The notes below the pieces were generated by a model. That model searched no databases. It had not been told where the DNA came from and saw only the letters and a list, made by a program, of their open reading frames with translations. From the NCBI GenBank assembly GCA_964513845.1, contig CAZENT010000004.1:13392-77391 (forward strand): a stretch of DNA of 64,000 nt, read 5' to 3'. Below are positions 3,405 through 28,364 of this stretch, one piece after another. Each line of letters opens with the position of its first letter. Position 1 is the stretch's first letter. Source of the stretch: an uncultured Pseudomonadales bacterium (GTDB taxonomy: Bacteria > Patescibacteriota > Microgenomatia > UBA1400 > MFAQ01). The position numbers and the translations under genes were made by a program.

Positions 3405-3438
3405 TCGTCATCCTCGCGCATGCGGGGATCGATATAAA
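3405..3438 (+). repeat. Conserved intergenic hairpin + TATATAAA motif, copy 1 (TCGTCATCCTCGCG-cat-GCGGGGATC-GATATAAA)
   Basis: Stem ATCCTCGCG / CGCGGGGAT (8 bp including one G-T wobble), loop variable between copies. Located between stop of 2854..3399 and ftsE ATG (3449). Confidence 0.6.
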
Positions 3439-3448
3439 TTGATAAAAA

Positions 3449-4168
3449 ATGATTGATTTTATTCACGTTTCGAAAAGCTACCCCAATGGAGATGTGGTGC
3501 TAGACGACATCGATTTTTCAATCTCACCAGGTGAGTTTGTCATCATTACTGGTAAATCTGGCGCCGGCAAAACCACCATTGGCCGCCTCCTGATTCGTGA
3601 TTTGGTTCCCGACAAAGGCAAAATCATTGTTGAGGGTATTGATCTCACCAAAATTAAGCCCCAAAGTATTCCTCTTCTTCGTCGCAAGATTGGCTTCGCT
3701 TTCCAGGACTTCCGAGTCATTCCGGATAAAACAGTCGGGGAAAACATTACGGTTGCTCTCGAGATTGCCGGTTATGATCCGAAAAAAATTACTGAAAAAA
3801 TTAATCACACTTTATCAATGGTTGGGCTCGCCGGAAAAGAAAATCTTTTTCCCGGTCAGCTTTCCGGAGGTGAGCTTCAAAGAGCGTCCATAGCCAGAGC
3901 CATCGCCGCAGAGCCCCCCGTTCTTTTTGCAGACGAGCCTACAGGCAATTTAGACAAAGAAACCTCTCTCGAAATCTTCAAACTTCTCCAGAAAATCAAC
4001 GACGAAGGCACCACCGTTATTATTGCCACCCACGACATCTCCATCATTAATCTCAACTTTGGCAGTCACATCCACCTTGAAAAAGGTAAGATAGTAAAGA
4101 TAGAAAAACGTAAAGAAGACAAAGAAGATAAGTCAGAAAAAGAAGAAAAAAAGAAGGAGAAAGACTAA
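3449..4168 (+). CDS. ftsE: Cell division ATP-binding protein FtsE with Lys/Glu-rich C-terminal tail
   Basis: Walker A GKSGAGKTT, signature LSGGELQRASIARA, Walker [12 protein letters not shown]. Immediately followed by ftsX. Unusual tail KIEKRKEDKEDKSEKEEKKKEKD. Confidence 0.85.
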   Translation: MIDFIHVSKSYPNGDVVLDDIDFSISPGEFVIITGKSGAGKTTIGRLLIRDLVPDKGKIIVEGIDLTKIKPQSIPLLRRKIGFAFQDFRVIPDKTVGENITVALEIAGYDPKKITEKINHTLSMVGLAGKENLFPGQLSGGELQRASIARAIAAEPPVLFADEPTGNLDKETSLEIFKLLQKINDEGTTVIIATHDISIINLNFGSHIHLEKGKIVKIEKRKEDKEDKSEKEEKKKEKD

Positions 4169-4169
4169 T

Positions 4170-5075
4170 ATGAGTACCGCACTAAAAAACATTCGTCGCT
4201 CACCATATCAGGCAATGTCGGCCATCTTTATCGTGAGTCTAACCATGTTTATCGTCGGCATCTTCGCCCTGGTCACCTTTGCTTCCCAAGAAATTCTCAA
4301 CAACTTCGAAACCAAGCCGCAAATTATTGCTTATCTCAAAGACGGTCACACCACCGATCAAGTTGGTGGTCTATTGGGCTCGCTAAACTCCACTCCCGGA
4401 GTCAAAAAAGCTCTTTACATAAGTAAAGAAGATGCCTTAGAGCTCTACAAAAAGAGTGTTGGCAACGACCCGGTTCTTCTGGGGACTGTTACCGATTGGG
4501 GCATTGTCACCGCCGATATTCTTCCAGCCAGTGTCGAGATCACCGCCCAAAATCCTGAATCTTTCAAAAATATTGCCGCCACCCTAGAAAAAAGTGACAT
4601 TGTCAGTGTCACTCCCTCCGGTAAAAAAGAAATCGACTATCCTCAAGACGTCATCTCCGAGCTTACCAAGTGGACCAATGCCATTCGTATTGGCGGTTTA
4701 GTTTTAGTCATTGCTCTTACTCTAGTTGCCATTCTCACCATCATGACCATCATCTCCATGAAGATTTCTTCCAGAAGATTTGAGATCAGCACTTTCAAGC
4801 TCATGGGCGCCAAAAATTTCTACATCATTAAGCCATATCTTCAAGAATCGGTATTTTACGGTGTTATTGGCGCTTTCATCGGCTGGCTCGGTTGCTTTGT
4901 TACTCTTTTATACTCCACCCCATTCCTAGCTCCGAGAATTGGCTCCATTATTTCGTTCCCCATTTCATATTTGGTCTACCTCATTCTCTTTGGAGTCCTT
5001 ATCATCTTCGGTCTGATTATCTCTTTCCTTTCGAGCCTTTTCGCCGCCAATAGATTCGTCAATCGTTCCAAATGA
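4170..5075 (+). CDS. ftsX: Cell division permease FtsX
   Basis: 301 aa, N-terminal TM, large periplasmic loop, three C-terminal TMs. Position directly after ftsE. Confidence 0.8.
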   Translation: MSTALKNIRRSPYQAMSAIFIVSLTMFIVGIFALVTFASQEILNNFETKPQIIAYLKDGHTTDQVGGLLGSLNSTPGVKKALYISKEDALELYKKSVGNDPVLLGTVTDWGIVTADILPASVEITAQNPESFKNIAATLEKSDIVSVTPSGKKEIDYPQDVISELTKWTNAIRIGGLVLVIALTLVAILTIMTIISMKISSRRFEISTFKLMGAKNFYIIKPYLQESVFYGVIGAFIGWLGCFVTLLYSTPFLAPRIGSIISFPISYLVYLILFGVLIIFGLIISFLSSLFAANRFVNRSK

Positions 5076-6277
5076 AAAAACTATTTTTAGTTTTTGCCAT
5101 TTTGTTTCTTTTTCTATGGATAAAGCCTGTTGTGGCAGTTGAGTGCGACGGGAATCCTCCCTCGGGTGCCGACAAGGTCAATGAAATTCAAGAATACATT
5201 GATAAATGTAATCAAAAAATTACCTCGCTCAAAGGCCAACAGCTCACTCTCCAGCAAACCATCACCACGCTAACTTCCAAAATCAACCTTGCGCAAGGTC
5301 AAATCAATCAAACTCAAGCTCAGATAAATTTACTCGAGAAAGAAGTTAATGTTCTTGATGGGGTTTTGGAAACAGTCAACGATTCCATGGATCAGTTGGG
5401 GGTGATTTACACCGCTCGAGTCCGCGAAAGTTACCGACGCTCTCGAGCCACCCCGGTTGATTTAATCTTTTCGACCACTTCGATAGGAGATTATTTTTCA
5501 AAATTAAAATATCTCAATACCGTCAAAACCAAAGATCAGCTAATTCTCGCTGAGTTGGAAAAATCCAGACTCGATTACGATCAAAGAAAAACAGATAAAG
5601 TTACCAAACAAAAAGAGGTTGAGGCGCTCAAGTCCAAACTGGTCGCCCAAAGAAAAACTTTAGATGCTCAGCAAAAAGAAAAACAAATTCTCTTGGCTCA
5701 AACTCAAAATGACGAAAAGAAATTCCAGTCACTTCTGTCCAAAGCCAGAGCCGAGTTAGAAGCTATCGAAGCTGTTATCGCCGGAAAGGGAACTGAAACG
5801 GAAGTGAGAGAGGTTAAGTCAGGGGACAAAATTGCAAACGTAATTCAAGGGGCTTCGTGTAACTCCAGCGGCTCCCATCTCCATTTCATCGTTGGTCAGG
5901 ATCACGCGGTCAAAAACCCTTTCAATTATCTCAAACCGGTCGATTATGAAAATTGTTCCGGTTCGAGTTGTGGAAGCGGAGATGGTGACACTTTCAACCC
6001 AACGGGTTCTTGGGACTGGCCTCTAAATCCTCGAATTTCACTATATCAGGGATTTGGACTAACCTGGGCCATCAATCACACTTGGGTTAGAAATATTTAT
6101 AGTTCCCATAATGGCATTGATATCAAAAGTGATAGCACTGAAGTTAAGGCTGTTCAGGGTGGTAAACTTTTCCGGGGAAGTTACTCCGGTTCCAATGGCT
6201 GTGCTCTTAAATATGTTCGTGTTGCACACTCAGATGGTGGTCTAGACACCTACTATCTTCACGTAAATTACTACTAG
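5072..6277 (+). CDS. Coiled-coil M23-family peptidase (EnvC-like activator/hydrolase), secreted
   Basis: Signal peptide, long Q/L-rich coiled coil, C-terminal LytM/M23-like region with HxH (SGSHLHFIVGQDH). Classic ftsE-ftsX-envC synteny. 4-nt overlap with ftsX. Confidence 0.65.
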   Translation: MKKLFLVFAILFLFLWIKPVVAVECDGNPPSGADKVNEIQEYIDKCNQKITSLKGQQLTLQQTITTLTSKINLAQGQINQTQAQINLLEKEVNVLDGVLETVNDSMDQLGVIYTARVRESYRRSRATPVDLIFSTTSIGDYFSKLKYLNTVKTKDQLILAELEKSRLDYDQRKTDKVTKQKEVEALKSKLVAQRKTLDAQQKEKQILLAQTQNDEKKFQSLLSKARAELEAIEAVIAGKGTETEVREVKSGDKIANVIQGASCNSSGSHLHFIVGQDHAVKNPFNYLKPVDYENCSGSSCGSGDGDTFNPTGSWDWPLNPRISLYQGFGLTWAINHTWVRNIYSSHNGIDIKSDSTEVKAVQGGKLFRGSYSGSNGCALKYVRVAHSDGGLDTYYLHVNYY

Positions 6278-6324
6278 GTTTTCTTAAGGTAATTTTTCTT
6301 CCAAACTGCTATATTTAGTAAGTA

Positions 6325-7470
6325 ATGAAACAAATCCTGCCCGTGTTGTTTCTTTTAATTTTTTGCTTTTTCCCGAAATCCATTTTTGCCCAAATTTTCA
6401 TCAACGAAGTTAGTCCCATCTCCAGTCCGGAATGGGTAGAGTTATACAACGACTCGGAGGATAATGTCGATATTTCAGGCTGGAAACTAATAGATCTTGC
6501 CAATAATTCAAAAACAATTCCTTCAGTCGTCATCAATGCTCGAGGGTTTTTCGTATACGAAAACAGCAGCGGCTGGCTAAATAACAGCGGTCAGGAATCA
6601 CTTGTTCTAAAAAATTCTGCTAACGAAACAATAGATACTCTTTCATACGGAACGGACGGGATCGTTGGCATACCCTCATCCGATAAAAGCATTGGCAGAT
6701 CTTCAGATGGATCATCATCTTGGGTAAACAATTTAGACTGGACCAAAGGCAGTACCAACTATTTAATTACGACTATCCCTAGCCCTACTGAAACCCCAAC
6801 AGCGACAGAGACTCCAACCTCAAGTCCTACTCCATCCAAATCCATATACAAGATAAACAAACCCAAAGATGAAAATGGCCAAGAACTTTCTAGTGTCGAG
6901 ATCTACGTGGATTCTATTTACACCCATCACAAGGATAACGAAATATTGGAATTTTGTAATGGTTGTTTCTGTGACTCGGGCAAAGCAATTTCTTGCGGGT
7001 ACGGGCAGCACACAATCAAGCTGACAAAGTCTGGCTACTCAGACTGGTCCGAGATACGCAATTTCACTGAGGGTTCAAATCACGAAATCACTCCGATTCT
7101 TACAAAAATCTCCACCCCCACCTCAACAACGTCTACGCAAACTCCAACCTCATCTCCTTCTCCAACTCCTTCCAAAACACTCACGACTGTCATTGCGAGG
7201 AGTACTCCGACGAAGCAATCCCCGACACCAACGACAGTACGGGACTCGATTGTCCTAGGAAGCTCCACCGATTCTGGCACAGTCATTGCGACTCAGTCCG
7301 CTCTTAGCGGAAGCGATAGTGCGGCAATCATAAATAATGAATTAACTCCTTTTCCCGAAATCGAAATCAAAAAGAAAAAACCCATAAATTACAAAAACCC
7401 CTTCTTTATTGGGTTGTTTCTTGCCGCCTCGTCGGGTGGCTTACTATATTTTCGCCATCGAAAAGATTAA
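6325..7470 (+). CDS. Secreted surface protein with N-terminal lamin-tail (LTD)-like domain, Thr/Pro-rich linkers and C-terminal TM anchor
   Basis: Signal peptide. IFINEVSPISSPEWVELYN...ISGWKLID pattern typical of LTD domains. TETPTATETPTSSPTPS and TSTQTPTSSPSPTPS low-complexity linkers. C-terminal hydrophobic segment + RHRKD. Confidence 0.55.
   Translation: MKQILPVLFLLIFCFFPKSIFAQIFINEVSPISSPEWVELYNDSEDNVDISGWKLIDLANNSKTIPSVVINARGFFVYENSSGWLNNSGQESLVLKNSANETIDTLSYGTDGIVGIPSSDKSIGRSSDGSSSWVNNLDWTKGSTNYLITTIPSPTETPTATETPTSSPTPSKSIYKINKPKDENGQELSSVEIYVDSIYTHHKDNEILEFCNGCFCDSGKAISCGYGQHTIKLTKSGYSDWSEIRNFTEGSNHEITPILTKISTPTSTTSTQTPTSSPSPTPSKTLTTVIARSTPTKQSPTPTTVRDSIVLGSSTDSGTVIATQSALSGSDSAAIINNELTPFPEIEIKKKKPINYKNPFFIGLFLAASSGGLLYFRHRKD
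7189..7221 (+). repeat. GTCATTGCGAG-n10-CGAAGCAATC mini-repeat, copy inside the CDS
   Basis: Shares both 10-11-nt end blocks with the intergenic copy at 8305-8340. Internal ATTGC/GCAAT inverted repeat. Confidence 0.35.
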
Positions 7471-7480
7471 AATACAAAAG

Positions 7481-7870
7481 ATGGCTCGAAAATTCGTTAA
7501 ATACACACCGGTTATTATTTGGATGGTTCTCATTTTTTGGATCTCCTCAGTTCCCGATCTACCCTCAAACAAGGTCGATATCCTCGATTTCTTTTTCAAA
7601 AAGACAGCCCATTTCTTGGAGTATGCGATTCTTTTCCTCCTCTGGTACAGAGCACTTGGTCGCAAAAATCCATTTTTAGCCATTGTCTTATCGTTAGTTT
7701 ACGCTTTCTCTGATGAAATGCATCAGCTTTTTGTTCCTGGTCGCACAGGCAGTCTTCGCGATGTGGGTATCGATTTCGGTGGCATACTCCTCTCATCTTT
7801 TTTAATAGTAAAATTTGATTTATGGAAACTACTTTTGTCTCCACATCCTACGAAGAAACTCGCGAAATAG
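7481..7870 (+). CDS. VanZ-family membrane protein
   Basis: MARKFVKYTPVIIWMVLIFWISS... four TM segments, conserved acidic/His stretch FSDEMHQLFVPGRTGSLRD typical of VanZ-like proteins. Start at 7481 preferred over upstream 7409 (which overlaps previous gene). Confidence 0.6.
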   Translation: MARKFVKYTPVIIWMVLIFWISSVPDLPSNKVDILDFFFKKTAHFLEYAILFLLWYRALGRKNPFLAIVLSLVYAFSDEMHQLFVPGRTGSLRDVGIDFGGILLSSFLIVKFDLWKLLLSPHPTKKLAK

Positions 7871-8259
7871 CCGAGAAATTTGCTGGTGATTTCGAGAAAG
7901 GCACTACCATTTGTTTGTATGGTGAGCTCGCTGCCGGCAAAACAACTTTTACTCAAGGAATAGGCAAAGCTTTTGGCATCGAGCGTCTTGTTTCACCCAC
8001 CTTTCTCATCATGCGTCAGTATCCAGTCACCAATCACCCGGTCATAAAAACTCTTTATCACCTAGATTTATACCGTCTGGAATCAGTCGAAGATATCAAG
8101 GCTTTCGATGTAGAAGAGATATGGTCGAGTCCAGAAAATCTTCTGGTTATCGAGTGGCCGGAAAAATTCAAAGACTATTTACCAAAAAACCGCTATGATA
8201 TTTTTTTCAAGGCCAATGGCGAAAACGAAAGAGAAATTAGAATTCAAGAACACAAATAA
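7822..8259 (+). CDS. tsaE: tRNA threonylcarbamoyladenosine biosynthesis protein TsaE (YjeE ATPase)
   Basis: 145 aa. P-loop GELAAGKTTFTQGI, conserved SPTF and HLDLYRL motifs of the YjeE family. Confidence 0.8.
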   Translation: METTFVSTSYEETREIAEKFAGDFEKGTTICLYGELAAGKTTFTQGIGKAFGIERLVSPTFLIMRQYPVTNHPVIKTLYHLDLYRLESVEDIKAFDVEEIWSSPENLLVIEWPEKFKDYLPKNRYDIFFKANGENEREIRIQEHK

Positions 8260-8260
8260 T

Positions 8261-8294
8261 TTGTCATCCTCGCGAATGCGGGGATCTATATAAA
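8261..8294 (+). repeat. Conserved intergenic hairpin + TATATAAA motif, copy 2
   Basis: TTGTCATCCTCGCGaatGCGGGGATCTATATAAA directly after tsaE stop. Same stem as copies 1 and 3, different loop. Confidence 0.6.
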
Positions 8295-8304
8295 CCACCC
8301 CAAT

Positions 8305-8340
8305 CGTCATTGCGAGTTTTGCACTCAAACCGAAGCAATC
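8305..8340 (+). repeat. GTCATTGCGAG-n15-CGAAGCAATC mini-repeat, intergenic copy
   Basis: Shares end blocks with 7189-7221. Lies between hairpin copy 2 and tsaB start. Confidence 0.35.
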
Positions 8341-8361
8341 TCTTATACAATTGTAAATATT

Positions 8362-8688
8362 ATGCGAATATACATCGACTCGACCGACAACACCAAAGCC
8401 ATCATCAGAATTGACGACAAGGAATTCACTCGGCACGTCGAAAGTCCTCGCGATCAAGACGTTTTAGGTTTTCTTTTGCATTGTTTGTCGGAGCAAAACA
8501 TCAAGCCGGAAGACATAGACGAAATAGAAGTAAATCCTGGTCCTGGTTCTTTTACGGGCACACGCGTCGGTGTTGCCATTGCCAATATGCTTTCCTATGC
8601 CCTAGACATTAAGGTAAACGGCTCAATGACGCCTGTAGAGCCAATCTATTCCGCACCTCCCTCAATCACGAAAAAGAAAGATACTTGA
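8362..8688 (+). CDS. tsaB: TsaB/YeaZ-like protein, N-terminal domain only (108 aa)
   Basis: Conserved VNPGPGSFTGTRVGVAIANML motif of the inactive Kae1/TsaD paralogue. ORF stops after ~100 aa, whereas full TsaB is ~230 aa. Confidence 0.6.
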   Translation: MRIYIDSTDNTKAIIRIDDKEFTRHVESPRDQDVLGFLLHCLSEQNIKPEDIDEIEVNPGPGSFTGTRVGVAIANMLSYALDIKVNGSMTPVEPIYSAPPSITKKKDT

Positions 8689-8732
8689 CATTGCTGAGGC
8701 TCATAGTAAAATACGTCCTAGAAGGCATTGAT

Positions 8733-8768
8733 ATATAACCTCCATTTGGTCACTTTGGTTATATGGAG
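8733..8768 (+). promoter_or_regulatory. Hairpin in 5' region of giant adhesin gene (ATATAACC...GGTTATAT / CTCCAT...ATGGAG)
   Basis: Two overlapping inverted repeats (8 bp and 6 bp stems) 60 nt upstream of the 8828 start. Confidence 0.25.
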
Positions 8769-8827
8769 CTAATAGTGAAACCGATCTAAAAAAAATTAGA
8801 ACGGCTAAACTGTAAAACCAATAATCA

Positions 8828-11800
8828 ATGAAATCTAGAAACATAAGAAAAATAATTTCGTTTATTTCTTCCTTTAACCTTCTTCTTCAATCTTTCCTCC
8901 CGCTAGCTATTGCAATGCCTGTTTATGCCGAAGATGCTTCTCCTGCAGCCATTGTCGAAGTCTCTCCAACTCCCGAAGTCACCCCGGAAATCACTCCCGA
9001 AGCCACTCCCACACCCGAGATCTCTGTAACTCCAGAACCAACTCCATCTGTGGAAATTACTCCGGAGCCATCAATTTCTCCAACTCCCGAAGTCACCCCC
9101 GAAATCACCCCAGAAATCACTCCAGAGCCAACAGCTGAGATCACCCCAGCCGAACAACAAAATAATGAAGAACAAAAAAACAACTCTCCACCCGCCGAAC
9201 AAAATAATATTCCTGCTGCCACTCCAACCCCCGAACCAACCATTGTCCTTCCCCAACCTCTCTCCGTAATTTCCCAACTCGAACAAGAAGCTCCAATTAT
9301 TTCTCCAACTCTATCAACTGACAAACCAGATTATTTTCCAACCGACACCGTCCACATCACCGGCACCGGCTTTTTAGCCAACACCACTTACACACTACAC
9401 ATATATTCTTCAGACAATCCAATTTTTAGTATTCGTCCAGAAGTATTGTCGGATGAATATGGCAATATTTCTCTATCATTCAGACTTGATGGAAACTACA
9501 GACCAAATTACATCGTCGATGCTATCGACAACAACGATCAAGTTGTTTTATCGTATTCGTTCTTAGATAGCCGCACATTCGTTTCTGTCACAGTAAACGG
9601 AGGATCAACTTCAACTGTGTTACCATCAGGTTCTGTCTCAGTAGACATTGATATTGATACCGATGGTACCGGAGAAGGAAGCGATTGGGAGTCGACAAAG
9701 TACACTATCGAGGGCCAATCTGCGATTTGTGACAACTCCCCCGACTATACATATGGTAGTAGTAGCGGTGCGACATCCACATATTCACTCACCGCTCCTG
9801 CAAATAATGGTACATATGATCTCGCTGTAGTTGCTTACAGTAACAATGGATGCTCAGGGCAAAGTAATACAACAACCCTGACAGACGCAATTACCGTTTC
9901 TTCTTCATTATTACAACCAGTTCTTCCTAATAATCCCTCCGATGATTATGCTCTCACATCAGTATCTGGAGTATGGACCAATGTCACAGGAGGCAGCAAC
10001 ATAACTGGAATTAATACAGAAGAAATTAGATGGGGTGTTCCCTCAGGAAGTCAAAAGAGTGGACTCCGTTTTGATGGAAGTGGTGTTCAAACGTTTAACT
10101 CAGGTAATAGTTTCTATCTTGGCGCTCTCACTCATATGAACTGGGGGACATTATCTGGTGCAGCCTCAGGAGCAAAATTAAACATTACTCTTAGTTTTTC
10201 AAAACCCACACTCTCACCAAACCCAGATTTTAGCTTTGATTTTTCAATCGAAGAAACATCGAATTCGTATGGTCACTGTCCTTCGTGGCAATCATCATTA
10301 ACACCCTGTGATGACAGAATTTCTTTTCCTGTAAGCTATGGCTCAAGAAGTTTTACCATTGGTGACAAACTATTTACCTTGAGAATCGATGGTTTTGTAA
10401 ATCAATATCCAAGTGGATCAACAGTTTCCCAATTTATTACGGAAGAACAAAAAAATAACGTTGCTTATCTTGTTGGATCATTATCATCAGTGTTGGTATC
10501 TTCTCCCCAAATATCTTTAGTTACAAAAGCCGTTGAAGGAGAGGACGCTGATTCAACTCCTGGCCAAAATTTATATGTTGGTGATACCGCCCACTTTACC
10601 TATGTTGTCCAAAACACCGGTAATGTTGATATGACTAGTGTTTCAGTAATTGATGACAGAGGTGTAGTAGTAACATGCCCTCAAACAACCTTAATCTCTG
10701 GTGCTTCGATGACCTGTACTGGTTCGAGTACTGTTGTTGTTGGTCAATACACTAACACCGCTCATGTTCACGGAACATACAACGGCACTGTGTATCAAAG
10801 TAACAATGAATCAGCCAACTATTTCGGAGTTGTTAGAAATGTATGTGGCGATGGCAACAAATCCTCATCCGAAGATTGTGATAATGGCGCAAATAATGGC
10901 ACAGTATGTACTCCTACTTACAATAATACTTGCACTTATTGTTCAGTCTCTTGTGAAATTCAAACAGTTGTTGGTCCAAAATGTGGAGACTACAACGTTG
11001 ACGCTGGAGAAACATGTGATGATGGCAATATTGTCAACGGTGATCACTGTAGTTCAACTTGTCAAACAGAAACTTGGTGTGGCGATGGAGTAAAAAATGG
11101 TTCCGAAGCCTGCGATGGTACAGATCTCGGTGGCTTATCTTCATCAACTTTTTCTTGTAACAAATGTTCACTCGAGTTAGTTGAGCCAAAAGTCACTATC
11201 TGTCACTCAACTAGCAGTCAAAGTAATCCTTATAATGTCCAAAATCCCGCCAAAACTGCCGATGTTTCTGGTCACGATGGTCATGATGGAGTAGTTTGGT
11301 ATCCTGGTATCACTGTCGCTTGGGGAGATATTATTCCTCCCTTCGCCTATATCGGCGGAACATATTCTGGTCAAAACTGGACCACTGAAGGCCAAGCAAT
11401 TTTCAACAATGGATGTAACATTCCCAATTACTGTGGAGATGGTGTAAAAGCCGGTTCCGAAGCTTGTGATGACGGCAACTCTGTCAACACAGATGCCTGT
11501 ACCAATGCTTGTACAGTATCTGTTTGTGGAGACACTATTGTTAATCCCGCAACCGAAGCTTGTGATGACGGCAACTCTGTCAACACAGATGCTTGTACCA
11601 ATGCCTGTACACTTCCTGTTTGTGGCGATAGTTTTGTCCAATCCGGCGAAGTCTGTGACGACGGTAATCGTGTAGACACCGACGCCTGTCGCAACAACTG
11701 CACTTTGCCCGTTTGTGGTGATGGAGTACTCTCCATGTCCGAAGATTGTGATGAAGGTGCTGAAAACGACACCACATGTACACCCGCCTATGGTGGTTCT

Positions 11801-14779
11801 TGTACCTACTGTCATGCTACCGAATGTAAAAACTACACCATCGACGGTCCATACTGTGGTGATGAAACCAAAAATGGTGAGGAACAATGTGATGGTACTG
11901 ATGGCGTCGGTACTCATCAGGTCTGTAATAGCGACTGTATCTTAGAAACTTTGTCATATTGTGGAGACGGAATCAAAGACACCGGTGAAGAATGCGATGG
12001 CACAGCCGGAGTAACAGCAGATAGTAATTTCTGTTCCACCTCTTGTCACTTAGTTCCCATCTACACTGGAAATAACGTTTGTAGTAATGGTAACGTCAAA
12101 GGAACCAAGCTAGCCAGCCAGACTATTTCTTCATCCTCCAAAACAGGTGAGGTTTTGAGTTTAGCTGCAGACAAAGAATATTTATTTGAAGTTAATGGAA
12201 CCTTTATTCCAACATCGGCCCTCGGATATCTCTCAGATGCCGCTCGTACATGGATCAATGGCAGTTTGTCTCCTCTCTATGGTATAAACGCAGCCGCCCC
12301 CGGTTTGGGTGCTCACTCACTGCTGGGTGATCTAGGCGATGGCGTTGGTATCATCAAATGGAACAATGTTTCTGATCATTTATATTCCTTCGCTTACACT
12401 CCAACCAACGACAACCAACAATTTGTTATCGGTGATCGTTATGGAGACTGGTTTAATACCGCCTGGCAAAATCAGGCCGGTATCAACGACAACAGAGGAG
12501 ATCTGACTCTGGATGTTTACGACTGTGTCAATCCAACAGGCAAAATAACTGTCATTAAAAATGTCGATACCAATGCTGACAGAGTTATCGAAATTGAAAA
12601 CTCTACAGATTGGACCTGGGATATTAATGATGGCGAACAAAACATCTCTACTGGTCAATCTAGAACATTAGGAATTGGTAATTACTCCATTTCTGAAGAT
12701 CAACAAGACGGATACACTCTTGTCAGTTGGTCATGTACAGATGGTACTTATGGCACGACAAATTCCATTCCTGTCGCTTTCAATAAGAATGGCGACGATA
12801 TAACTTGTACATTGACCAATGTCCGCGATACTGGTTCAATCGTTGTCAATAAATATATCGATGCTGATGGAGATATCAACACTACTTCCGATCAAACCTT
12901 AAGCGCCAACTGGCAGTTTGATGTAGATGGTCTAGATCTCGACACTACCGATGCTTTGGCTCAGTACACCGGCAGCACCGGTTCGGCCACTTTCGCCGAT
13001 CTCAAAACCGGAGGTTACACTGTAATCGAGACAAAGCAAACAGGTTTCGATCTGGTTTCAGCCAACTGTGGCGTTGAAAACGGCTCGTTTGACGGAACTG
13101 ACTCCGTTGACAACGTCCAGGTCGTCAAGGGTGAAGCAACCACCTGTACCTTCTACAACACACCAAACAGTACTATTCACGGATATAAATGGAGCGACGT
13201 TGATGGTGACGGACAGAAAGATTCTGAAGAGACTCTTCTCTCCGGTTGGACAATAAATCTCTATAAATCCGACGGTGAAGTCTTTGGTACAACACCAATA
13301 GCTACAATGAACACCAGTGAAGGGCAACATACTGGTTGGTACTGGTTCGAAAACCTCCTTCCTGGTCAATACAAGGTTTGCGAAACATTAAAAACTGGTT
13401 GGAGCCAAACATATCCTCAGAATACTGATAAAGACACCTGTCATTATGTCTCACTTCCTGATGGTTCATCGGGTACTCTCTTTGAGGACTCGGCAAGTGG
13501 CAACACTTACAACTTTGGTAACATCCAGTTAGGAAAGATCAACGTCACTAAATATAACGATTTAGATGGCGATGGTTCTCAAGACGAAAATGAAAGAGTC
13601 CTTGGCGGTTGGACAATTTCCCTATCTGATAACGAGAATCAAGTCACTGGTGAAAATGGTAAAGTCTCTTACAACGATCTCAATCCAAACAGAAGTTACA
13701 CTCTAAGTGAAAACATACAAGGAGGTTGGATTCAAACCAACATCTCTTGTACTGTCAATAACTCTGGTGAAGGAGTCAAAATCACTGCTCAGGGAGAAGC
13801 CTACGGACATCACGGTAATTGTGGTGGCTGGAATGGTTGTGGCGATGCTGCTACATGTGCCCAATGGGCCTGTCAAGCAAAAGGCTACGCCAACCTAGTC
13901 TCCTATGGCGAGTCCAAACCCTGTACTCAGTTCAGTAACTGTAATCTATTCAACAGCGGTGCCAATAATGGCGTTGATTACAACTGGGGTAACTGGTGTG
14001 AAGTAGCTGGTGTCACCGACATTGTTTGTAGCAATTCCACCGGGGACTCGTACTCAGGTGAACGTTTACCTCTCTATGCTGGTAACGATCCCGAGAACTC
14101 CAGAAACCTCAATGTAAATGCTGGAGATATTATCAACTGTTCCATCGGCAATCATCGTGTCGAACCCAAGCTCAAAATTAGTCGTTCAAACAATGCCACC
14201 TCATCTCTCACTCCAGGTGGAAGTGTTGAACATACGATTACTATTAAAGTCGAGGATAACAACATTAGTAACCTTAAACTTACCGATCTTCTTCCCAACG
14301 GTTTCAAATTCAGAGCCGGTTCATACTCAGTGATGAAAAACGGAACCGATGTTGTAACCCTGGCTCACGATCCAGAGTATCACTCTCCAGGTGTTTGGGA
14401 GCTCGGAAACTTTAATAAAAATGATGTAATAACTATCAAATACCTTGCTGATATTAGCGGAGACGTCGAACCTGGAACATATCCCGATCTCGCTTCCGCC
14501 ATAGCTAACGATGCATATGAGCAAGGGCTAAGTTTCCTCGCAATCGGAGAAAACTCCAAATATGTTGATGAAAACTTCGTCGGCACCGACGTTGAGATAG
14601 TCAAGAGTCAAACTCGTGACGACTCATACAATGTCGAAAAAGAAGAAATAATTAAAGGCGAAGTTCTCGGTACTTCCACCAGCTTACCCGCAACTGGCGC
14701 TTCTCCGATGTGGCTCATGCTTGCCTTCATCAGTCTTGTCTATGGAATCAGATTAATAAAGTCGAGTAACAAAAAGTAA
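8828..14779 (+). CDS. Giant (1983 aa) sortase-anchored surface protein / putative adhesin
   Basis: Signal peptide; PEVTPEITPE low-complexity tract; ~9 Cys-rich CGDGxxxxxExCDDGNxxxxDxC repeats (Myxococcus-type Cys-rich repeat); several SdrD-B/Cna-B-like DxDGDG...GW modules; DUF11-like C-terminal domain; LPATG followed by hydrophobic span and KK tail. Confidence 0.85.
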   Translation: MKSRNIRKIISFISSFNLLLQSFLPLAIAMPVYAEDASPAAIVEVSPTPEVTPEITPEATPTPEISVTPEPTPSVEITPEPSISPTPEVTPEITPEITPEPTAEITPAEQQNNEEQKNNSPPAEQNNIPAATPTPEPTIVLPQPLSVISQLEQEAPIISPTLSTDKPDYFPTDTVHITGTGFLANTTYTLHIYSSDNPIFSIRPEVLSDEYGNISLSFRLDGNYRPNYIVDAIDNNDQVVLSYSFLDSRTFVSVTVNGGSTSTVLPSGSVSVDIDIDTDGTGEGSDWESTKYTIEGQSAICDNSPDYTYGSSSGATSTYSLTAPANNGTYDLAVVAYSNNGCSGQSNTTTLTDAITVSSSLLQPVLPNNPSDDYALTSVSGVWTNVTGGSNITGINTEEIRWGVPSGSQKSGLRFDGSGVQTFNSGNSFYLGALTHMNWGTLSGAASGAKLNITLSFSKPTLSPNPDFSFDFSIEETSNSYGHCPSWQSSLTPCDDRISFPVSYGSRSFTIGDKLFTLRIDGFVNQYPSGSTVSQFITEEQKNNVAYLVGSLSSVLVSSPQISLVTKAVEGEDADSTPGQNLYVGDTAHFTYVVQNTGNVDMTSVSVIDDRGVVVTCPQTTLISGASMTCTGSSTVVVGQYTNTAHVHGTYNGTVYQSNNESANYFGVVRNVCGDGNKSSSEDCDNGANNGTVCTPTYNNTCTYCSVSCEIQTVVGPKCGDYNVDAGETCDDGNIVNGDHCSSTCQTETWCGDGVKNGSEACDGTDLGGLSSSTFSCNKCSLELVEPKVTICHSTSSQSNPYNVQNPAKTADVSGHDGHDGVVWYPGITVAWGDIIPPFAYIGGTYSGQNWTTEGQAIFNNGCNIPNYCGDGVKAGSEACDDGNSVNTDACTNACTVSVCGDTIVNPATEACDDGNSVNTDACTNACTLPVCGDSFVQSGEVCDDGNRVDTDACRNNCTLPVCGDGVLSMSEDCDEGAENDTTCTPAYGGSCTYCHATECKNYTIDGPYCGDETKNGEEQCDGTDGVGTHQVCNSDCILETLSYCGDGIKDTGEECDGTAGVTADSNFCSTSCHLVPIYTGNNVCSNGNVKGTKLASQTISSSSKTGEVLSLAADKEYLFEVNGTFIPTSALGYLSDAARTWINGSLSPLYGINAAAPGLGAHSLLGDLGDGVGIIKWNNVSDHLYSFAYTPTNDNQQFVIGDRYGDWFNTAWQNQAGINDNRGDLTLDVYDCVNPTGKITVIKNVDTNADRVIEIENSTDWTWDINDGEQNISTGQSRTLGIGNYSISEDQQDGYTLVSWSCTDGTYGTTNSIPVAFNKNGDDITCTLTNVRDTGSIVVNKYIDADGDINTTSDQTLSANWQFDVDGLDLDTTDALAQYTGSTGSATFADLKTGGYTVIETKQTGFDLVSANCGVENGSFDGTDSVDNVQVVKGEATTCTFYNTPNSTIHGYKWSDVDGDGQKDSEETLLSGWTINLYKSDGEVFGTTPIATMNTSEGQHTGWYWFENLLPGQYKVCETLKTGWSQTYPQNTDKDTCHYVSLPDGSSGTLFEDSASGNTYNFGNIQLGKINVTKYNDLDGDGSQDENERVLGGWTISLSDNENQVTGENGKVSYNDLNPNRSYTLSENIQGGWIQTNISCTVNNSGEGVKITAQGEAYGHHGNCGGWNGCGDAATCAQWACQAKGYANLVSYGESKPCTQFSNCNLFNSGANNGVDYNWGNWCEVAGVTDIVCSNSTGDSYSGERLPLYAGNDPENSRNLNVNAGDIINCSIGNHRVEPKLKISRSNNATSSLTPGGSVEHTITIKVEDNNISNLKLTDLLPNGFKFRAGSYSVMKNGTDVVTLAHDPEYHSPGVWELGNFNKNDVITIKYLADISGDVEPGTYPDLASAIANDAYEQGLSFLAIGENSKYVDENFVGTDVEIVKSQTRDDSYNVEKEEIIKGEVLGTSTSLPATGASPMWLMLAFISLVYGIRLIKSSNKK
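11455..11740 (+). repeat. Three tandem 96-nt (32-codon) Cys-repeat units; first two ~97% identical over the ~59-nt compared stretch
   Basis: ccgaagcttgtgatgacggcaactctgtcaacacagatgcYtgtaccaatgcYtgtaca occurs at 11455 and again 96 nt later at 11551. Third unit diverged. Confidence 0.7.
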
Positions 14780-15751: not shown

Positions 15752-15760
15752 TTGACTAAG

Positions 15761-16324: not shown

Positions 16325-16349
16325 ACCCTGTGGCATAATGAAATAAGTT

Positions 16350-17198: not shown

Positions 17199-17449
17199 AA
17201 AAACCAATTCGCAGCCTCTTCGACTATCTCATTCTTTCCTTGATCGTTTCCATTGCTATTATTCTCATTCTTTACTTCAATGGCAGCAAATTTTATCAAG
17301 AAATCATTATTATCGGACTTTCTATACTATATATAGTATGGGGTATTTTCCATCACGCCAAAGAGAAAACCTTGCAGGCACGAGTGATTCTCGAATACGT
17401 GCTCTTCGGGCTTCTTGGTTCAGTGATAGTTATCGGCCTATTAAAGTAG
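17195..17449 (+). CDS. Small membrane protein (84 aa, 3 TM)
   Basis: ATGA overlap with upstream gene, strongly hydrophobic. No homology assigned. Confidence 0.4.
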   Translation: MKKPIRSLFDYLILSLIVSIAIILILYFNGSKFYQEIIIIGLSILYIVWGIFHHAKEKTLQARVILEYVLFGLLGSVIVIGLLK

Positions 17450-17471
17450 TCGGTTTGTACAAGCTGTATAA

Positions 17472-18212: not shown

Positions 18213-18215
18213 AAT

Positions 18216-19214: not shown

Positions 19215-20107
19215 TGTCAAAAGAAAAAATATTAGTCACGGGTGCTTCAGGATTAGTCGGCTCACGCTTTGTTGAGCTCTCAAAAAATTACAATTTTTTC
19301 ACTCCTGAGTATCCCGAGTTCGATCTTACCAATATTGATTCTGTAAAAATAGCCATCGAAAAATACTATCCGGAATGGATAGTTAACTTCGCCGCTTTTA
19401 CCGATGTCAATGCCGCCGAAGCTCAGACAAGGGACGAGTCCGGCACGGCGTGGAAAGTCAATGTTGATGGTGTAAACAATCTAGTTAGCTGTTTCCCCTC
19501 AGAAAAAATTATCCATATTTCGACCGACATGGTTTTCCCAGGTGATGTCGACAATCCCGGCCCATATTCCGAGTCCGACAAAACTCCAGACTCACCCAAA
19601 ACGCTAACCTGGTATGGTTGGACCAAAAATCGTGCCGAAAAGATCATTCTTGCTCATGGTGGCTCAGTTCTCCGTATTATTTATCCGGTGAGAGCTCACT
19701 ACGACGCCAAGCTCGACTACATTCGTGGCGCTCTCAAAAAATACTCCGACGGCAAGATGTATCCTCTTTTCAATGATCAGCAAATCAGTATTTCTTTCAT
19801 CGATGAAGTGGCTGAAACTCTTCAAAAAATTATCGATACCGAAAGCTCAGGCATATTTCACTGTAGCTCCGACACCACCACCCCATACGAGCTCATTACC
19901 TTTACTGTTGACCAGCTCGGGGGAGATGCTTCGACCATCAAGTCAGCCTCCATCAATAAATTCTTGGAAACACAGGCAAATAAAAATCGCTATCCCATCT
20001 GGGGCGGTTTAAAAACAGTCAAAACTGAAGAAAAGCTTGATCTCCATTTTTCCACTTGGCAGACTGTAGTTGAAAAACTCATTGGTCAGGGGTTATCCTT
20101 AAAGTAA
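19214..20107 (+). CDS. rmlD: dTDP-4-dehydrorhamnose reductase-like NAD(P)-dependent epimerase/reductase
   Basis: TGASGLVGSRF Rossmann motif. 297 aa, position after rmlB. No rmlC seen in window. Confidence 0.6.
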   Translation: MSKEKILVTGASGLVGSRFVELSKNYNFFTPEYPEFDLTNIDSVKIAIEKYYPEWIVNFAAFTDVNAAEAQTRDESGTAWKVNVDGVNNLVSCFPSEKIIHISTDMVFPGDVDNPGPYSESDKTPDSPKTLTWYGWTKNRAEKIILAHGGSVLRIIYPVRAHYDAKLDYIRGALKKYSDGKMYPLFNDQQISISFIDEVAETLQKIIDTESSGIFHCSSDTTTPYELITFTVDQLGGDASTIKSASINKFLETQANKNRYPIWGGLKTVKTEEKLDLHFSTWQTVVEKLIGQGLSLK

Positions 20108-22822: not shown

Positions 22823-22827
22823 TAACC

Positions 22828-23070: not shown

Positions 23071-23076
23071 GTAGAA

Positions 23077-23709: not shown

Positions 23710-23880
23710 GCTATATTATACCAACCCCATAATGACGTAGTAATTATGGGTGTTTCAGTATAAGAGGAAGCGCAAGATTTTTCAGATACATAACGAAGTT
23801 ATGATGAAAAATCGAGCAAGCTCTTATATCAAGCTCAAATCATTTTCGAACAAATGGTATATATTTCACCTTCCGTTTGG

Positions 23881-24025
23881 CATTTAGTATTTTTGACAAT
23901 AAGTCGCACGTCCGTACATTTTCTTGATTTTCAGACTACTGTCTGCGAGCCTACGCGACGAGCGGGCGAGAATCAAGAAAATAGGAACCGACGGGCACCG
24001 AAGGTGACGTCATAAAATACTAAAT
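23881..24025. ncRNA. Candidate structured RNA / nested imperfect palindrome (6S-RNA-like topology) in trmD-CDGSH intergenic region
   Basis: Outer arms catttagtatttttgac (23881-23897) and gtcataaaatactaaatg (24008-24025) are reverse complements with one indel. Inner arms attttcttgatt (23918-23929) and aatcaagaaaat (23970-23981) are a perfect 12-bp stem. ~20x22-nt internal loop and 36-nt GC-richer apical region. Strand unknown. Confidence 0.3.
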
Positions 24026-24122
24026 GACAAAAGAGGAAGGGGGATATTCTAATTAATTCTGAAAAAGCACACGCTCGGTCCTCAGAAAGATAAGTACGAG
24101 AGGAATCAAGAACTCAAATAGT

Positions 24123-24398: not shown

Positions 24399-24400
24399 CT

Positions 24401-25582: not shown

Positions 25583-25619
25583 CTTTATATTCGGGTAATC
25601 TATGGTATATACTTGATTA

Positions 25620-26300
25620 ATGTCATGGATATTTTTGGATGAAAGTGGCCAATTTTTCAAAAATGAAAAACAAAAATATTTTGTAGTTGGGTCTTTTACA
25701 ACTGGTAATCCAAATAGAACTAAAAAAGGATTTAAATCTTGGCAAACTCAAAAATTTCCCAAAAAACAAAAAGGTCAGTCAGAAATAAAGTTTTCAGACA
25801 TAAAAATTGATGATAAATTAAGAATCAAAACCCTGAATCATTTGTCTGGTCTTGATATCAGAATCATGTATGTTTTTCTATTAACAGACAATATTCCAAG
25901 CGAATATCGTAAAAAAAATAAAGTTGTTGACACTGGGTTGCTTTATGTAAATGTAATAGGTGAACTGTTAGAGATGTATCTTCCTTGTACAGACAAAGAG
26001 TTTAGAATTTTTTGTGACAAGCGTCACCTTAAAGGTATTACAACCTCTGAATTTAAAAAGTTGTTAACAAACAGACTTTCTCCTCAATTACCATCATCAA
26101 CAATTGTTCAAATTGAAATGATTGATTCAACTACAAATCCAAATATTCAAATTGCTGATTGGATTTCAAGTGCTTTAGGTAGATCGTTTAATGGAGGAGA
26201 AATGGGGAGTGAATGCAAATTATCTCTTAAAAACAATATTGTTTCAGAAAAAGAATTATTTAAAGATTATTGGGCAAAAAAACAAAAAACTCGAACTTAA
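25620..26300 (+). CDS. DUF3800-family protein
   Basis: N-terminal IFLDESG and C-terminal QIADWISSAL blocks match the DUF3800 signature. Markedly AT-rich codon usage relative to neighbours. Followed by its own terminator. Confidence 0.6.
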   Translation: MSWIFLDESGQFFKNEKQKYFVVGSFTTGNPNRTKKGFKSWQTQKFPKKQKGQSEIKFSDIKIDDKLRIKTLNHLSGLDIRIMYVFLLTDNIPSEYRKKNKVVDTGLLYVNVIGELLEMYLPCTDKEFRIFCDKRHLKGITTSEFKKLLTNRLSPQLPSSTIVQIEMIDSTTNPNIQIADWISSALGRSFNGGEMGSECKLSLKNNIVSEKELFKDYWAKKQKTRT

Positions 26301-26314
26301 TCGAGTGTTTTGTT
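26290..26314 (+). terminator. Rho-independent terminator-like hairpin (CTCGA-acttaa-TCGAG + TGTTTTGTT)
   Basis: 5-bp GC-containing stem overlapping the DUF3800 stop, followed by T-rich run. Sits at a convergent gene junction. Confidence 0.4.
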
Positions 26315-26471
26315 AGAAGCAGCGTCTTTCAAAGTGGTTTTCTTCGACTTTTGTTCCGGATTCTCCGGAGGAACACCAAAGCACTTAGAAAGTTATTATT
26401 GCTAGCCTCTGTCAACATAATATGACAAGGTAAGGTGAATGTCAAGTCACAGGCACAAAAAGATGCAAAAA

Positions 26472-27587
26472 TTACAAATACGGAGCCCAGTCGGCAATTG
26501 GAGCCAGATTATTCAATAAGAAGTTCCAGCTAAATAAAAGTATCGGGATGGTCAAGATTGCCATCACAATCTTGAACTCTTTTTTCTGAATCAAGCTATC
26601 CCAGCCAATTAGAACAAATGGCGCGATAGGTAGTATGTAGCGGCTTATATCACGGTGTGCCACAGTCAGAGTAGCCAGGAAAAACAATCCAGAAAAATAC
26701 ATCTCGATATTCATTTTTTTCTCCTTCAGTTTGGCGATCCCCAAGCCAAAGATTAGCCATGTCCAGATCACGTCTTCCAGCCAGAAGTTACCCACCCAGA
26801 ACTGACCCTTTGGGGCAAAGATCGAGAACGGTGGCCAAAAAAGATGAATATTGTCCCCACTATTAAAGTAAGCCCAAAAGTCACCCGTTCGTATTCCAAA
26901 AAAACCAAACAAACCAAAGATAGCCAAAAACTGAATCATCAAGGGAGCATATTTAAACTGAATTTTCTTAAGTTTGATAGACTCCACCAAGGCGAATAAT
27001 CCGTAAGCACCAAGCAAAATAATCGCCGGACTCTTAGTCAATTGGGCGAGGGCTCCAAACAATCCCGCCAGCCAAAATTTTTCTTTACGAAAGTAAAAAA
27101 TACTGGCAATTATAAAAAGCAAAAACCAGGGTTCAGGAGAGCCAATACTGCGCACCGCCACCCAGCGAGCCGGCAAGATCAAGAAAACCAAACATAGCCA
27201 AAGTGGATTTTTACTGAAGCCAAACTCTTTTAGATACCTAAAAAGCATCAAGAAACACAAAACCGATCCCAGTAGTGTAGCCAAAAGCATCGCCGTAGGT
27301 CCCTTTAGTACCGAGTCAAATACGGAGATAATGGCAGGATATAAAGGGAAATGCGCCGGGTAATACTCAGCCGGTAGGGGACTAGAAAATTTACTCTTTA
27401 TTGCTTCGATGTTGTACCAAGTTTTTTCGACGATCAAGTAATTCGGTCCATCATAATTTTGCCATAGAATTTTTGATCCAACCGAAAAATCCATACCCCA
27501 TCCAGGTAGTTGTATCTTGGTGATAAAGGGCAACCAAACAACAAGGGAAAATAGGATAACGGCGATAGCTAAATATAGGCGTTTCAT
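26472..27587 (-). CDS. Polytopic membrane protein, putative GT-C-fold glycosyltransferase (GT87/DUF2029-like)
   Basis: >=9 predicted TM segments. Start placed at MKRLYLAIAVILF (27587) rather than the upstream extension to 27671. Minus strand within a plus-strand array. Confidence 0.5.
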   Translation of the reverse strand: MKRLYLAIAVILFSLVVWLPFITKIQLPGWGMDFSVGSKILWQNYDGPNYLIVEKTWYNIEAIKSKFSSPLPAEYYPAHFPLYPAIISVFDSVLKGPTAMLLATLLGSVLCFLMLFRYLKEFGFSKNPLWLCLVFLILPARWVAVRSIGSPEPWFLLFIIASIFYFRKEKFWLAGLFGALAQLTKSPAIILLGAYGLFALVESIKLKKIQFKYAPLMIQFLAIFGLFGFFGIRTGDFWAYFNSGDNIHLFWPPFSIFAPKGQFWVGNFWLEDVIWTWLIFGLGIAKLKEKKMNIEMYFSGLFFLATLTVAHRDISRYILPIAPFVLIGWDSLIQKKEFKIVMAILTIPILLFSWNFLLNNLAPIADWAPYL

Positions 27588-27607
27588 GTACCTATTAGTA
27601 TATACTT

Positions 27608-28324
27608 GTGAGTATGACGAGACAAATAGAAAAATTGTCCGTGTTTTTGCCGGCATACAACGAAGAGGCAAACTTACAACGGACAGTCAAAAACGTAATC
27701 GAAAATCTCCAAAAAAACGTTTCCGAATGGGAAATAGTTATCGTTGATGATGGTTCAAAAGACAAAACCGGTGCCATTGCCGATTTGCTTGCCAAAGAAA
27801 ACAAAAAAATCTCCGTCATTCATCATTCTCCCAACAGAGGTTATGGTGCCGCCTTCAAAAGCGGCCTTTATGGCTGTAAATATCCTTGGATTTCTTTTAT
27901 CGACTCCGACGGCCAGTTCAATTTCAAAGAAATTGGTAGGTTCATCGACACCCAAGAAAAAACCCAAGCCGACATGGTCATTGGTTACTATCTCAAACGA
28001 AAAGTCCCTTTTACTCGCATTCTAAACTCCAAAACCTGGCAGTTCATCGTTTATCTTCTTTTTGGTCTTAACGTTCGCGATATTGACTGTGGTTTCAAAC
28101 TAATCTCCAAAAAAGTAGTTGACACTATTCCCAAGCTCGAAAGCGAAAGGGGAGCCTTTATTAGCTCCGAATTCCTGATCAAAGCCAAAAAAGCCGGTTT
28201 CAAGATTGTCGAGATTGGCGTTCAGCACTATCCTCGCAAATTTGGAGAAGCCACCGGTGCCAAGCTAAACGTTATTGTCCAAAGCTTTATTGACCTGTTT
28301 ACACTTTGGCGAAAAATAAAATAA
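27608..28324 (+). CDS. GT2 glycosyltransferase (polyprenol-phosphate sugar transferase-like)
   Basis: SVFLPAYNEE...IVIVDDGSKDKT...DSDGQF DxD-type GT2 motifs. 238 aa, no TM domain. Confidence 0.8.
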   Translation: MSMTRQIEKLSVFLPAYNEEANLQRTVKNVIENLQKNVSEWEIVIVDDGSKDKTGAIADLLAKENKKISVIHHSPNRGYGAAFKSGLYGCKYPWISFIDSDGQFNFKEIGRFIDTQEKTQADMVIGYYLKRKVPFTRILNSKTWQFIVYLLFGLNVRDIDCGFKLISKKVVDTIPKLESERGAFISSEFLIKAKKAGFKIVEIGVQHYPRKFGEATGAKLNVIVQSFIDLFTLWRKIK

Positions 28325-28328
28325 TGTA

Positions 28329-28364
28329 TTCGTCATCCTTGCGAAAGCGGGGATCTATATAAAA
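28329..28364 (+). repeat. Conserved intergenic hairpin + TATATAAA motif, copy 3 (loop GAAA)
   Basis: TTCGTCATCCTTGCGaaaGCGGGGATCTATATAAAA. ATG of next gene follows immediately at 28365. Confidence 0.6.

Follow-up and report, generated by a model that had tools for sequence, protein, structure and literature searches.

Hairpin repeats of the SRM/NTS class at stop/start junctions in a Woesebacteria-like Patescibacteria genome

Introduction

The closest described systems to the elements analysed here are the Neisseria Transformation Sequence (NTS), CGTCATTCCCGCGMAVGCGGGAATCYRG, which encompasses the old dRS3 repeat, and a degenerate cross-phylum pattern, the Ssn-related motif (SRM), HGTCWYN(0-2)YYVSBRHN(0-5)WNVSBRGN(0-2)RNCYNB (PMC11893778). 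SsnA, a 94-aa single-domain GIY-YIG protein, binds and cuts the motif solely as single-stranded DNA and on one strand only, a few nucleotides upstream of the hairpin; it does not bind RNA (PMC11893778). Binding depends critically on the C after the palindrome and cleavage on the three bases before it, while the loop sequence is unimportant (PMC11893778). In Neisseria, Ssn/NTS modulates the integration of incoming single-stranded DNA; Povalibacter, Devosia, and Sphingomonas are named as SRM-rich, and the main text makes no mention of Patescibacteria (PMC11893778). Here we analyse three copies of a hairpin element with an AT-rich tail in a 64,000-nt stretch of a Patescibacteria contig (CAZENT010000004.1 of assembly GCA_964513845.1, positions 13,392 to 77,391; hereafter the window). 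They match the SRM/NTS class and are probably targets, or relics of targets, of a single-stranded-DNA enzyme, inserted where one gene stops and the next starts.

Other hairpin repeats invite comparison. Classical enterobacterial repetitive extragenic palindromic (REP) sequences and bacterial interspersed mosaic elements (BIMEs) are intercistronic hairpin repeats of operons, which co-transcribed genes tolerate between them and which can stabilise the mRNA upstream. The window elements are likewise intercistronic hairpin repeats inside operons, but their sequence family is unrelated to REP/BIME. The Neisseria repeat has also been assigned to Group 2 of the REP-associated tyrosine transposases (RAYTs; bioRxiv 10.1101/2021.07.10.451892), and an SRM-type hairpin is found in the Francisella small RNA FtrB (Rfam RF02748), whose probe reads GTCATTCCCGCGTAGGCGGGAATC in reverse complement (PMC3091763).

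Results

Three copies of one hairpin element match the SRM pattern

An initial annotation had described three plus-strand elements, each a hairpin followed by TATATAAA, and all three sequences are indeed present, at 3405–3438, 8261–8294, and 28329–28364. They share a 24-nt core, GTCATCCYYGCG-N3-GCGGGGATC. In copy 1 the core is GTCATCCTCGCGCATGCGGGGATC (3407–3430, + strand), an SRM-type hairpin that reads GTC, left arm ATCCTCGC, loop GCAT, right arm GCGGGGAT, and C; in copy 2 it is GTCATCCTCGCGAATGCGGGGATC (8263–8286, + strand) and in copy 3 GTCATCCTTGCGAAAGCGGGGATC (28332–28355, + strand), a CCTTGCG variant with two T.G pairs and a GAAA loop. Directly 3' of each core stands (G/T)ATATAAA, as part of an AT-rich tail that is GATATAAA in copy 1 (3431–3438), TATATAAA in copy 2 (8287–8294), and TATATAAAA in copy 3 (28356–28364). 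Copies 1 and 3 have some 12 further upstream nucleotides in common, AAAATRATGTAYTC (family D5 of the repeat finder). Allowing up to three mismatches, the core has exactly three matches in the window, all on the + strand (0.00 expected from 100 shuffles), and the 3' half plus tail is also matched three times (0.24 in shuffles).

All three copies are single, intergenic, and in sense orientation. A stop codon lies 1–5 nt 5' of each (TGA 3397–3399, TAA 8257–8259, TAA 28322–28324) and the next same-strand starts are at 3449, 8362, and 28365, so the placement between a stop and a same-strand start that had been proposed holds for every copy. The distance from the TATA-like sequence to the ATG varies: 10 nt at copy 1, 67 nt at copy 2, where the next sequence 3' of the tail is a further repeat unit and not a gene start, and 1 nt at copy 3, where the tail abuts the ATG.

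The published SRM pattern matches copy 2 (8262–8289, flanks included) and copy 3 (28331–28358) exactly and copy 1 in all but one position, a G in place of Y after the post-palindrome C; shuffled sequence yields 0.1 matches per window. The leader (C/T)GTCAT, where SRM requires HGTC-W-Y, directly precedes the palindrome in all three copies, and the post-palindrome cytosine is present in all three (3430, 8286, and 28355). The imperfect palindrome with a variable loop lies on the motif strand, and the copies are multiple and extragenic (three intergenic copies versus 0 expected). The resemblance to SRM/NTS thus runs from a CGTCAT leader through an imperfect palindrome with a short variable loop to the C and the Y-N-B that follow it. 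The window elements differ from NTS in their stem, which is ATCCTCGC/GCGGGGAT with a T.G pair rather than ATTCCCGCG/CGCGGGAAT, in the 5' flank CGTAsTC and the AT-rich tail TATAWAAA that this lineage adds, and in that all copies are single, sense, and exactly at stop/start junctions.

The hairpin is asymmetric between strands

The stem comprises 8 bp, ATCCTYGC/GCGGGGAT, with one T.G pair in copies 1 and 2 and two in copy 3; the 4-nt loop is GCAT, GAAT, and GAAA in copies 1, 2, and 3, respectively. Because of the T.G pairs the DNA hairpin is more stable on the + strand (-7.7, -6.4, and -4.1 kcal/mol for copies 1, 2, and 3) than on the - strand (-6.0, -4.6, and -3.0 kcal/mol). This asymmetry would be consistent with the one-strand recognition described for the class. 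Folded as RNA, the hairpins are stable as well (-11 to -15 kcal/mol, z -2.3 to -3.0).

An 8-bp stem with a wobble and a variable loop had been described at the outset, and this description stands. The 'covariation-like' pattern read into it does not: within the window there is nothing beyond a varying loop and a single C>T substitution that preserves a G.T pair, and the sole true compensatory stem change, G-C to A-T, occurs in a relative (locus L139) outside the window. To argue from the structure to a function was reasonable; the published function of the class, however, acts on single-stranded DNA and not on transcription.

The core recurs across phyla

We scanned one genome per species (GTDB species representatives) for exact matches to GTCATCCYYGCGNNNGCGGGGATC. 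The exact core occurs at least 139 times in at least 120 stretches, where about one chance match is estimated. The matches listed come from Alpha-, Beta-, Gamma-, and Deltaproteobacteria, Planctomycetes, Bacteroidota, Fibrobacter, Gemmatimonadota, Chlorobi, and Omnitrophota, as well as from at least eight Patescibacteria lineages, and include Povalibacter, Devosia, and Sphingomonas, which are named as SRM-rich. A further 110 stretches of viral contigs also hold the exact core. The initial suggestion of a small dispersed repeat family is thereby confirmed, and the family, which spans many phyla and matches a published class, is wider than was supposed. By sequence comparison, the window copies can be assigned to this family and placed in a Patescibacteria genome.

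The flanks are conserved across phyla, too. Two pyrimidines (YY) precede GTCAT, and the positions after ATC are C/T in 97%, A in 82%, and G/T in 80% of cases, a 3' consensus of C-Y-A-K. These family-wide flanks cover the TC/TT before and the TAT after the window cores; therefore the 'TAT' of the supposed TATA box is family consensus, and 'ATAAA' alone is local. A second hairpin, similar but inverted, is often present 20–40 nt downstream of the core in other phyla.

Two further observations concern the repeats themselves. About 10% of the cross-phylum core copies (30/297) have a partial copy of the motif's 5' half within 45 nt upstream. The period is 16–22 nt in about 20 of the 30, and in roughly 15 the 9-nt flank is duplicated too, so that the repeat unit consists of the flank and the left arm up to the loop. 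Such duplications are seen in genome and viral loci alike (L002, L007, L008, L019, L021, L032, L050, L088, L099, L111, and others). They may have been left by cleavage and repair, or by slippage at the hairpin, and go unmentioned in the Ssn paper (PMC11893778). In Rhodopseudomonas pentothenatexigens (L015, 5848–7310) the core occurs six times, five of them ~310 nt apart in an apparent tandem array; the last interval is 195 nt, and a run of N in the assembly lies between two copies.

The junctions are empty in close relatives

Copy 1 lies between a gene for a 181-aa protein without a Pfam family (2854–3399, + strand) and a gene for an FtsE-like ABC ATPase (3449–4168, + strand), which is followed by an ftsX-like gene (4170–5075, + strand). 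Copy 2 separates tsaE (7822–8259, + strand) from a short gene of the tsaB/TsaD family (8362–8688, + strand), and copy 3 separates a family-2 glycosyltransferase gene (27608–28324, + strand) from one of the PMT_2/GT39 type (28365–29840, + strand). To compare the orthologous junctions in close relatives, which are Woesebacteria-like Patescibacteria, we fetched 80 ftsE loci; junction 3 was reached via orthologues of the PMT_2 protein.

At junction 1, six relatives (L123–L125, L129, L131, and L148) read ...ccaaaaTAAttattgcctGTG with no element, four more (L126, L130, L137, and L144) have similarly short element-free spacers, and in L141 and L142 the two genes overlap by ATGA, ...ccaaaATGAttgat. 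The copy 1 tail is missing from the empty junctions as well. The same junction is filled in the window and in L127, L128, L132, L135/L136, L138, L139, L140, and L143, with between one and three GTCAT-hairpin units, which fall into several stem classes. Junction 2 is a spacer-free ATGA overlap in six relatives and holds one to three units in the window, L132, and L138. At junction 3 the genes overlap by ATGA in L314 and L317 and abut as TAG-ATG in L315; an identical element is present in L313, a 95% relative, and the unit in L316 belongs to a different stem class, with an identical 5' flank (ATGAcgtagtc) and a like tail (atataaataaa). Since the same flank and tail accompany different stems at different junctions, CGTAsTC and (T)ATAWAAA travel with the unit. 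Several close relatives have no unit in ~20 kb.

Copy 1 is framed by a direct repeat, AAAATGAT. Its left copy (3393–3400, + strand) contains the TGA stop of the 181-aa gene and its right copy (3446–3453, + strand) the ftsE ATG; an 8-nt direct repeat is reached by 16 of 2000 shuffles. The insert in L316 is flanked on both sides by AAATGA. At copy 1 and in L316 alike, the duplication takes in the overlapping stop and start of the ancestral junction. Because the junctions are empty in close relatives and other units occupy the same junctions, the three copies are, on this comparison, secondary insertions inside operons and not ancestral signals.

A second stem class, GTCATTGCGAG...GCAATC, has the same layout as the core (GTC + ATTGC...GCAAT + C) and is represented by 14 copies, 12 in the fetched loci and two in the window. 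One of the window units (8306–8340, + strand), degenerate and weakly folding, is in tandem after copy 2. The other, GTCATTGCGAGGAGTACTCCGACGAAGCAATC (7189–7220, + strand), lies in frame within the open reading frame (ORF) of a Lamin-tail-domain protein (6325–7470), where, from the frame computed from the coordinates, it would translate as VIARSTPTKQS; repeated Thr/Pro/Ser-type sequence is nearby. A repeat unit thus seems to be tolerated inside this coding region. Hits of a relaxed hairpin finder (one mismatch, long loops) were mostly false positives within genes and were left out of the counts.

An Ssn-type gene adjoins the core in other genomes

Ssn-like ORFs of ~95 aa adjoin the exact core in two genome-derived loci, L039 and L041. 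For the L041 protein, homologues at E ≤ 1e-5 number 1674; the best 120 of them all carry PF01541 and are mostly ~95–100 aa long. Among the genome-derived and syntenic loci, a profile built from these 120 sequences finds strong matches solely in L039 and L041. The 110 viral-contig stretches with the core constitute an independent set. Ten of them carry a strong Ssn-type ORF (E ≤ 1e-35), in each case 0–76 nt from a core, and in four the core flanks the gene on both sides. Taken together, all 12 Ssn-type ORFs of the fetched loci are 0–76 nt away from an exact core. When 150 ORFs, drawn at random from those no more than 120 nt from a core, were scanned without bias against Pfam, GIY-YIG was the top family; the others were only phage structural families, which reflect the sampling, and singletons, with no Y1 transposase in the top 25.

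The contigs with Ssn-type genes among the best 120 homologues (P0001–P0120) are mostly very short, often under 2 kb. Such shortness would be expected if flanking repeats break metagenome assemblies, and would then bias against finding ssn in metagenome-assembled genomes.

Transcription signals and RNA families

Consensus promoter and terminator scans covered positions 1–20000, that is, copies 1 and 2 (copy 3 lies outside). We rejected the elements as intrinsic terminators: the stem is followed by C(T/G)ATATAAA without a T-run, and the scan made no call at copies 1 and 2. A sigma-70-type promoter was rejected as well, there being no call at these copies and only a -10-like TATAAA that lacks the final T. 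Promoter-like sites are no commoner in the scanned region than in shuffles (35 vs 37). Reading the sequence, TTGTCA or TCGTCA is found 20–22 nt upstream of TATAAA. No Shine-Dalgarno sequence precedes operon-first genes in the window, and a TATA-like hexamer often stands a few nucleotides before their ATG.

At the gathering threshold, Rfam reports nothing on the elements. In a permissive search the sole match to the copy 2 region is FtrB, at 20.1 bits (E = 0.35; gathering score 66); membership in this family was rejected, the similarity being limited to the shared hairpin.

Other features of the window

The window is gene-dense, with nearly all genes on the + strand, and apart from those described above its genes have cell-envelope and housekeeping functions. 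Among named homologues, those nearest to the RF2 protein come from Candidatus Woesebacteria (85% identity), followed by Collierbacteria and 'Patescibacteria group'. The host genome is, by sequence similarity, a Woesebacteria-like Patescibacteria genome. Nearly all genes lie on the + strand, yet its GC skew is negative throughout (cumulative -3.6), opposite to the usual leading-strand pattern.

A c-di-GMP-II riboswitch (8712–8795, + strand; 65 bits, gathering score 53.5) lies directly 5' of a gene (8828–14779) for a 1983-aa surface protein with SpaA/prealbumin-like, SdrD_B, and DUF4215 domains, which is followed by a 323-aa ORF and a sortase gene (15752–16324 in the locus). This region looks like a locus for an adhesin or pilus controlled by c-di-GMP in a Patescibacteria genome. 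A DUF3800 gene (25620–26300, + strand) is followed by a DUF3800-V RNA (26315–26410, - strand; 74.7 bits). The gene is missing at the syntenic position in L315, L316, and L317, where the RNA was not searched for; the region 25620–26410 looks like an insertion.

The 413-nt spacer between trmD (- strand) and a zf-CDGSH gene (+ strand), 23710–24122, measures 24–56 nt in relatives; in the window it has no Rfam match at E ≤ 1 and no sizeable ORF. Inside a tightly packed glycosyltransferase cluster, a 248-nt intergenic region (43251–43498) ends with TATAAT 6 nt before the ATG at 43499, a spacing that would suit a leaderless transcript. Positions 30380–63213 hold an extended series of membrane glycosyltransferase-like paralogues (PMT_2, PTPS_related, YfhO, and several GT2) with internal DNA similarity, for example between 32740–32835 and 34406–34501.

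Discussion

Our data are best explained if the three elements are SRM hairpin repeats of the NTS/dRS3 type, likely the targets of a single-stranded-DNA enzyme or relics of such targets, that were inserted at stop/start junctions; we regard this explanation as probable. It draws together the match to the SRM pattern, the extragenic multi-copy occurrence, and the Ssn-type genes that adjoin the exact core in other genomes. By analogy with the SRM class (PMC11893778), the + strand, once single-stranded, would fold into the hairpin, and a small GIY-YIG nuclease (Ssn) would bind the hairpin and cut a few nucleotides upstream. The copies in this genome would be targets or relics of such an enzyme encoded elsewhere in the genome. 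They may be tolerated because neither the stop nor the start codon is lost when the junction is duplicated, and any effect as a promoter, on mRNA stability, or as a translation spacer would be a by-product. The AT-rich tail could have a secondary role, that of a weak -10 box or of an unstructured leader or translation spacer in a host without Shine-Dalgarno sequences.

Several results weigh against this explanation. Neither an Ssn-type or other GIY-YIG gene nor a transposase or integrase was found in the 64-kb window, which was searched with a GIY-YIG regular expression, tblastn, the 120-sequence Ssn profile (--max), and Pfam scans of the larger ORFs. The Ssn profile likewise found no Ssn-type gene in ~420 kb of close relatives (~327 kb of ftsE-syntenic and ~92 kb of PMT_2-syntenic loci), a difference from the SRM/NTS systems as far as the sequence at hand goes. 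No Patescibacteria are among the named taxa of the best 120 of the 1674 homologues of the Ssn query. GIY-YIG ORFs do lie near the core in other Patescibacteria (L004 and L051), but they score 27–35 bits against the Ssn profile and look like UPF0213/YhbQ-type proteins, that is, distant Ssn relatives; a search for a solved Ssn structure gave weak UPF0213 matches only. Target duplication is significant for copy 1 alone, the flanking repeats of copies 2 and 3 not rising above shuffles. The literature does not give the mode by which SRMs spread, and we found no follow-up literature on SRM mobility. Finally, the window copies are single and sense whereas the core often forms inverted doublets in other phyla, and the biology here may therefore differ.

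In Microgenomates-type Patescibacteria, SRM units might have turned into a self-contained gene-junction cassette, [AAATGA]-CGTAsTC-GTCAT-hairpin-C-TATAWAAA-[AAATGA], which inserts specifically at ATGA/TAATG overlaps and duplicates the junction, so that both frames are kept and their translational coupling is broken; the tail would be a new -10 box or an unstructured leader free of Shine-Dalgarno sequence, and the mobilising enzyme might be something other than Ssn. We consider this proposal possible but on balance doubtful.

The initial annotation saw in the elements a compact terminator-promoter insulator, in which the hairpin ends upstream transcription and TATATAAA, as a -10 box, restarts it to give leaderless or short-leader mRNAs. 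Their position between same-strand genes in sense orientation, the stability of the RNA hairpins, and the TATA-like hexamers near the ATG of operon-first genes would all suit such a role, and a tail that travels with the unit could restore expression downstream of an insertion. There is, however, no T-tract after the stem and no -35 box at 16–18 nt, and neither scan calls copy 1 or 2. The tail stands 1, 10, or 67 nt from the ATG; at copy 3 a transcript starting 5–9 nt after TATAAA would begin inside the ORF, and at copy 2 the tail precedes a further repeat unit and not a gene. The 'TAT' belongs to the cross-phylum consensus of the repeat. The same gene pairs overlap by ATGA or abut in relatives, and these junctions therefore need neither a terminator nor a promoter. 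Such a device is not supported as the origin or primary role of the elements, and we deem it unlikely. The annotation had also offered a binding site for a global regulator, that is, an operator at which a dimer would bind the inverted repeat ATCCYCGC-N4-GCGGGGAT. Apart from the palindrome and its position upstream of gene starts, little recommends this: the downstream genes (ftsE, tsaB, and a PMT_2-type glycosyltransferase gene) are unrelated, the sites are missing from close relatives, and the conserved flanks are asymmetric and oriented. An identical 24-mer in at least 120 species of many phyla, from Proteobacteria to Planctomycetes, is moreover unlike a lineage-specific regulon. A regulator site is thus not supported and extremely improbable.

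Mobilisation by a RAYT, a Y1 HUH transposase of the IS200/IS605 type, would make the elements REP/REPIN-type repeats and not Ssn targets. It has been proposed for the Neisseria dRS3 repeats, whose core, ATTCCCGCGCAGGCGGGAATC, is related (bioRxiv 10.1101/2021.07.10.451892). The window elements share with dRS3, REPINs, and REPs the character of short palindromic extragenic repeats whose presence varies between relatives, as well as a core related to ATTCCC-N8-GGGAAT, and in other phyla the core often forms REPIN-like inverted doublets, 20–40 nt apart. In the window, by contrast, units are single or in direct tandem on one strand and never form inverted doublets, and no transposase-like gene was found among the scanned ORFs. 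The leader is GTCAT and not the GTAG of classical REPs, and the only family recurrently found beside the core across phyla, apart from the phage structural ones, is GIY-YIG and not Y1 transposase. We therefore judge a RAYT origin quite unlikely. The hairpin might instead act at the level of RNA, by protecting the upstream cistron from 3' exonucleases, as a processing site in the operon mRNA, or by yielding a small RNA. This would fit the sense orientation of all copies inside operons, the restriction of G.U pairs to the transcribed strand, and the likeness of the hairpin to that of FtrB, the only Rfam family to match copy 2. That match is far below threshold, though, in other phyla the core is found in either orientation with respect to genes, the enzyme described for the class does not bind RNA, and the junctions work without an element in relatives. 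We consider an RNA-level function very unlikely as the main explanation; given stable RNA hairpins in sense orientation, a side effect on the mRNA is possible.

SRM targets or relics thus remain the explanation that we favour, and several things follow from it. A 'hairpin + TATA box' between housekeeping genes is easily mistaken for a promoter, terminator, or regulator site, a mis-annotation that is averted here. While the repeat class itself was already known, a lineage-specific version of SRM/NTS with an AT-rich tail is new. It extends the recently described Ssn/SRM system, in its DNA half at the least, to Patescibacteria, bacteria with tiny, gene-dense genomes. Several Patescibacteria are reported to take up DNA. 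The clean empty and filled footprints at three junctions, together with the partial duplications elsewhere, could help to explain how these repeats spread.

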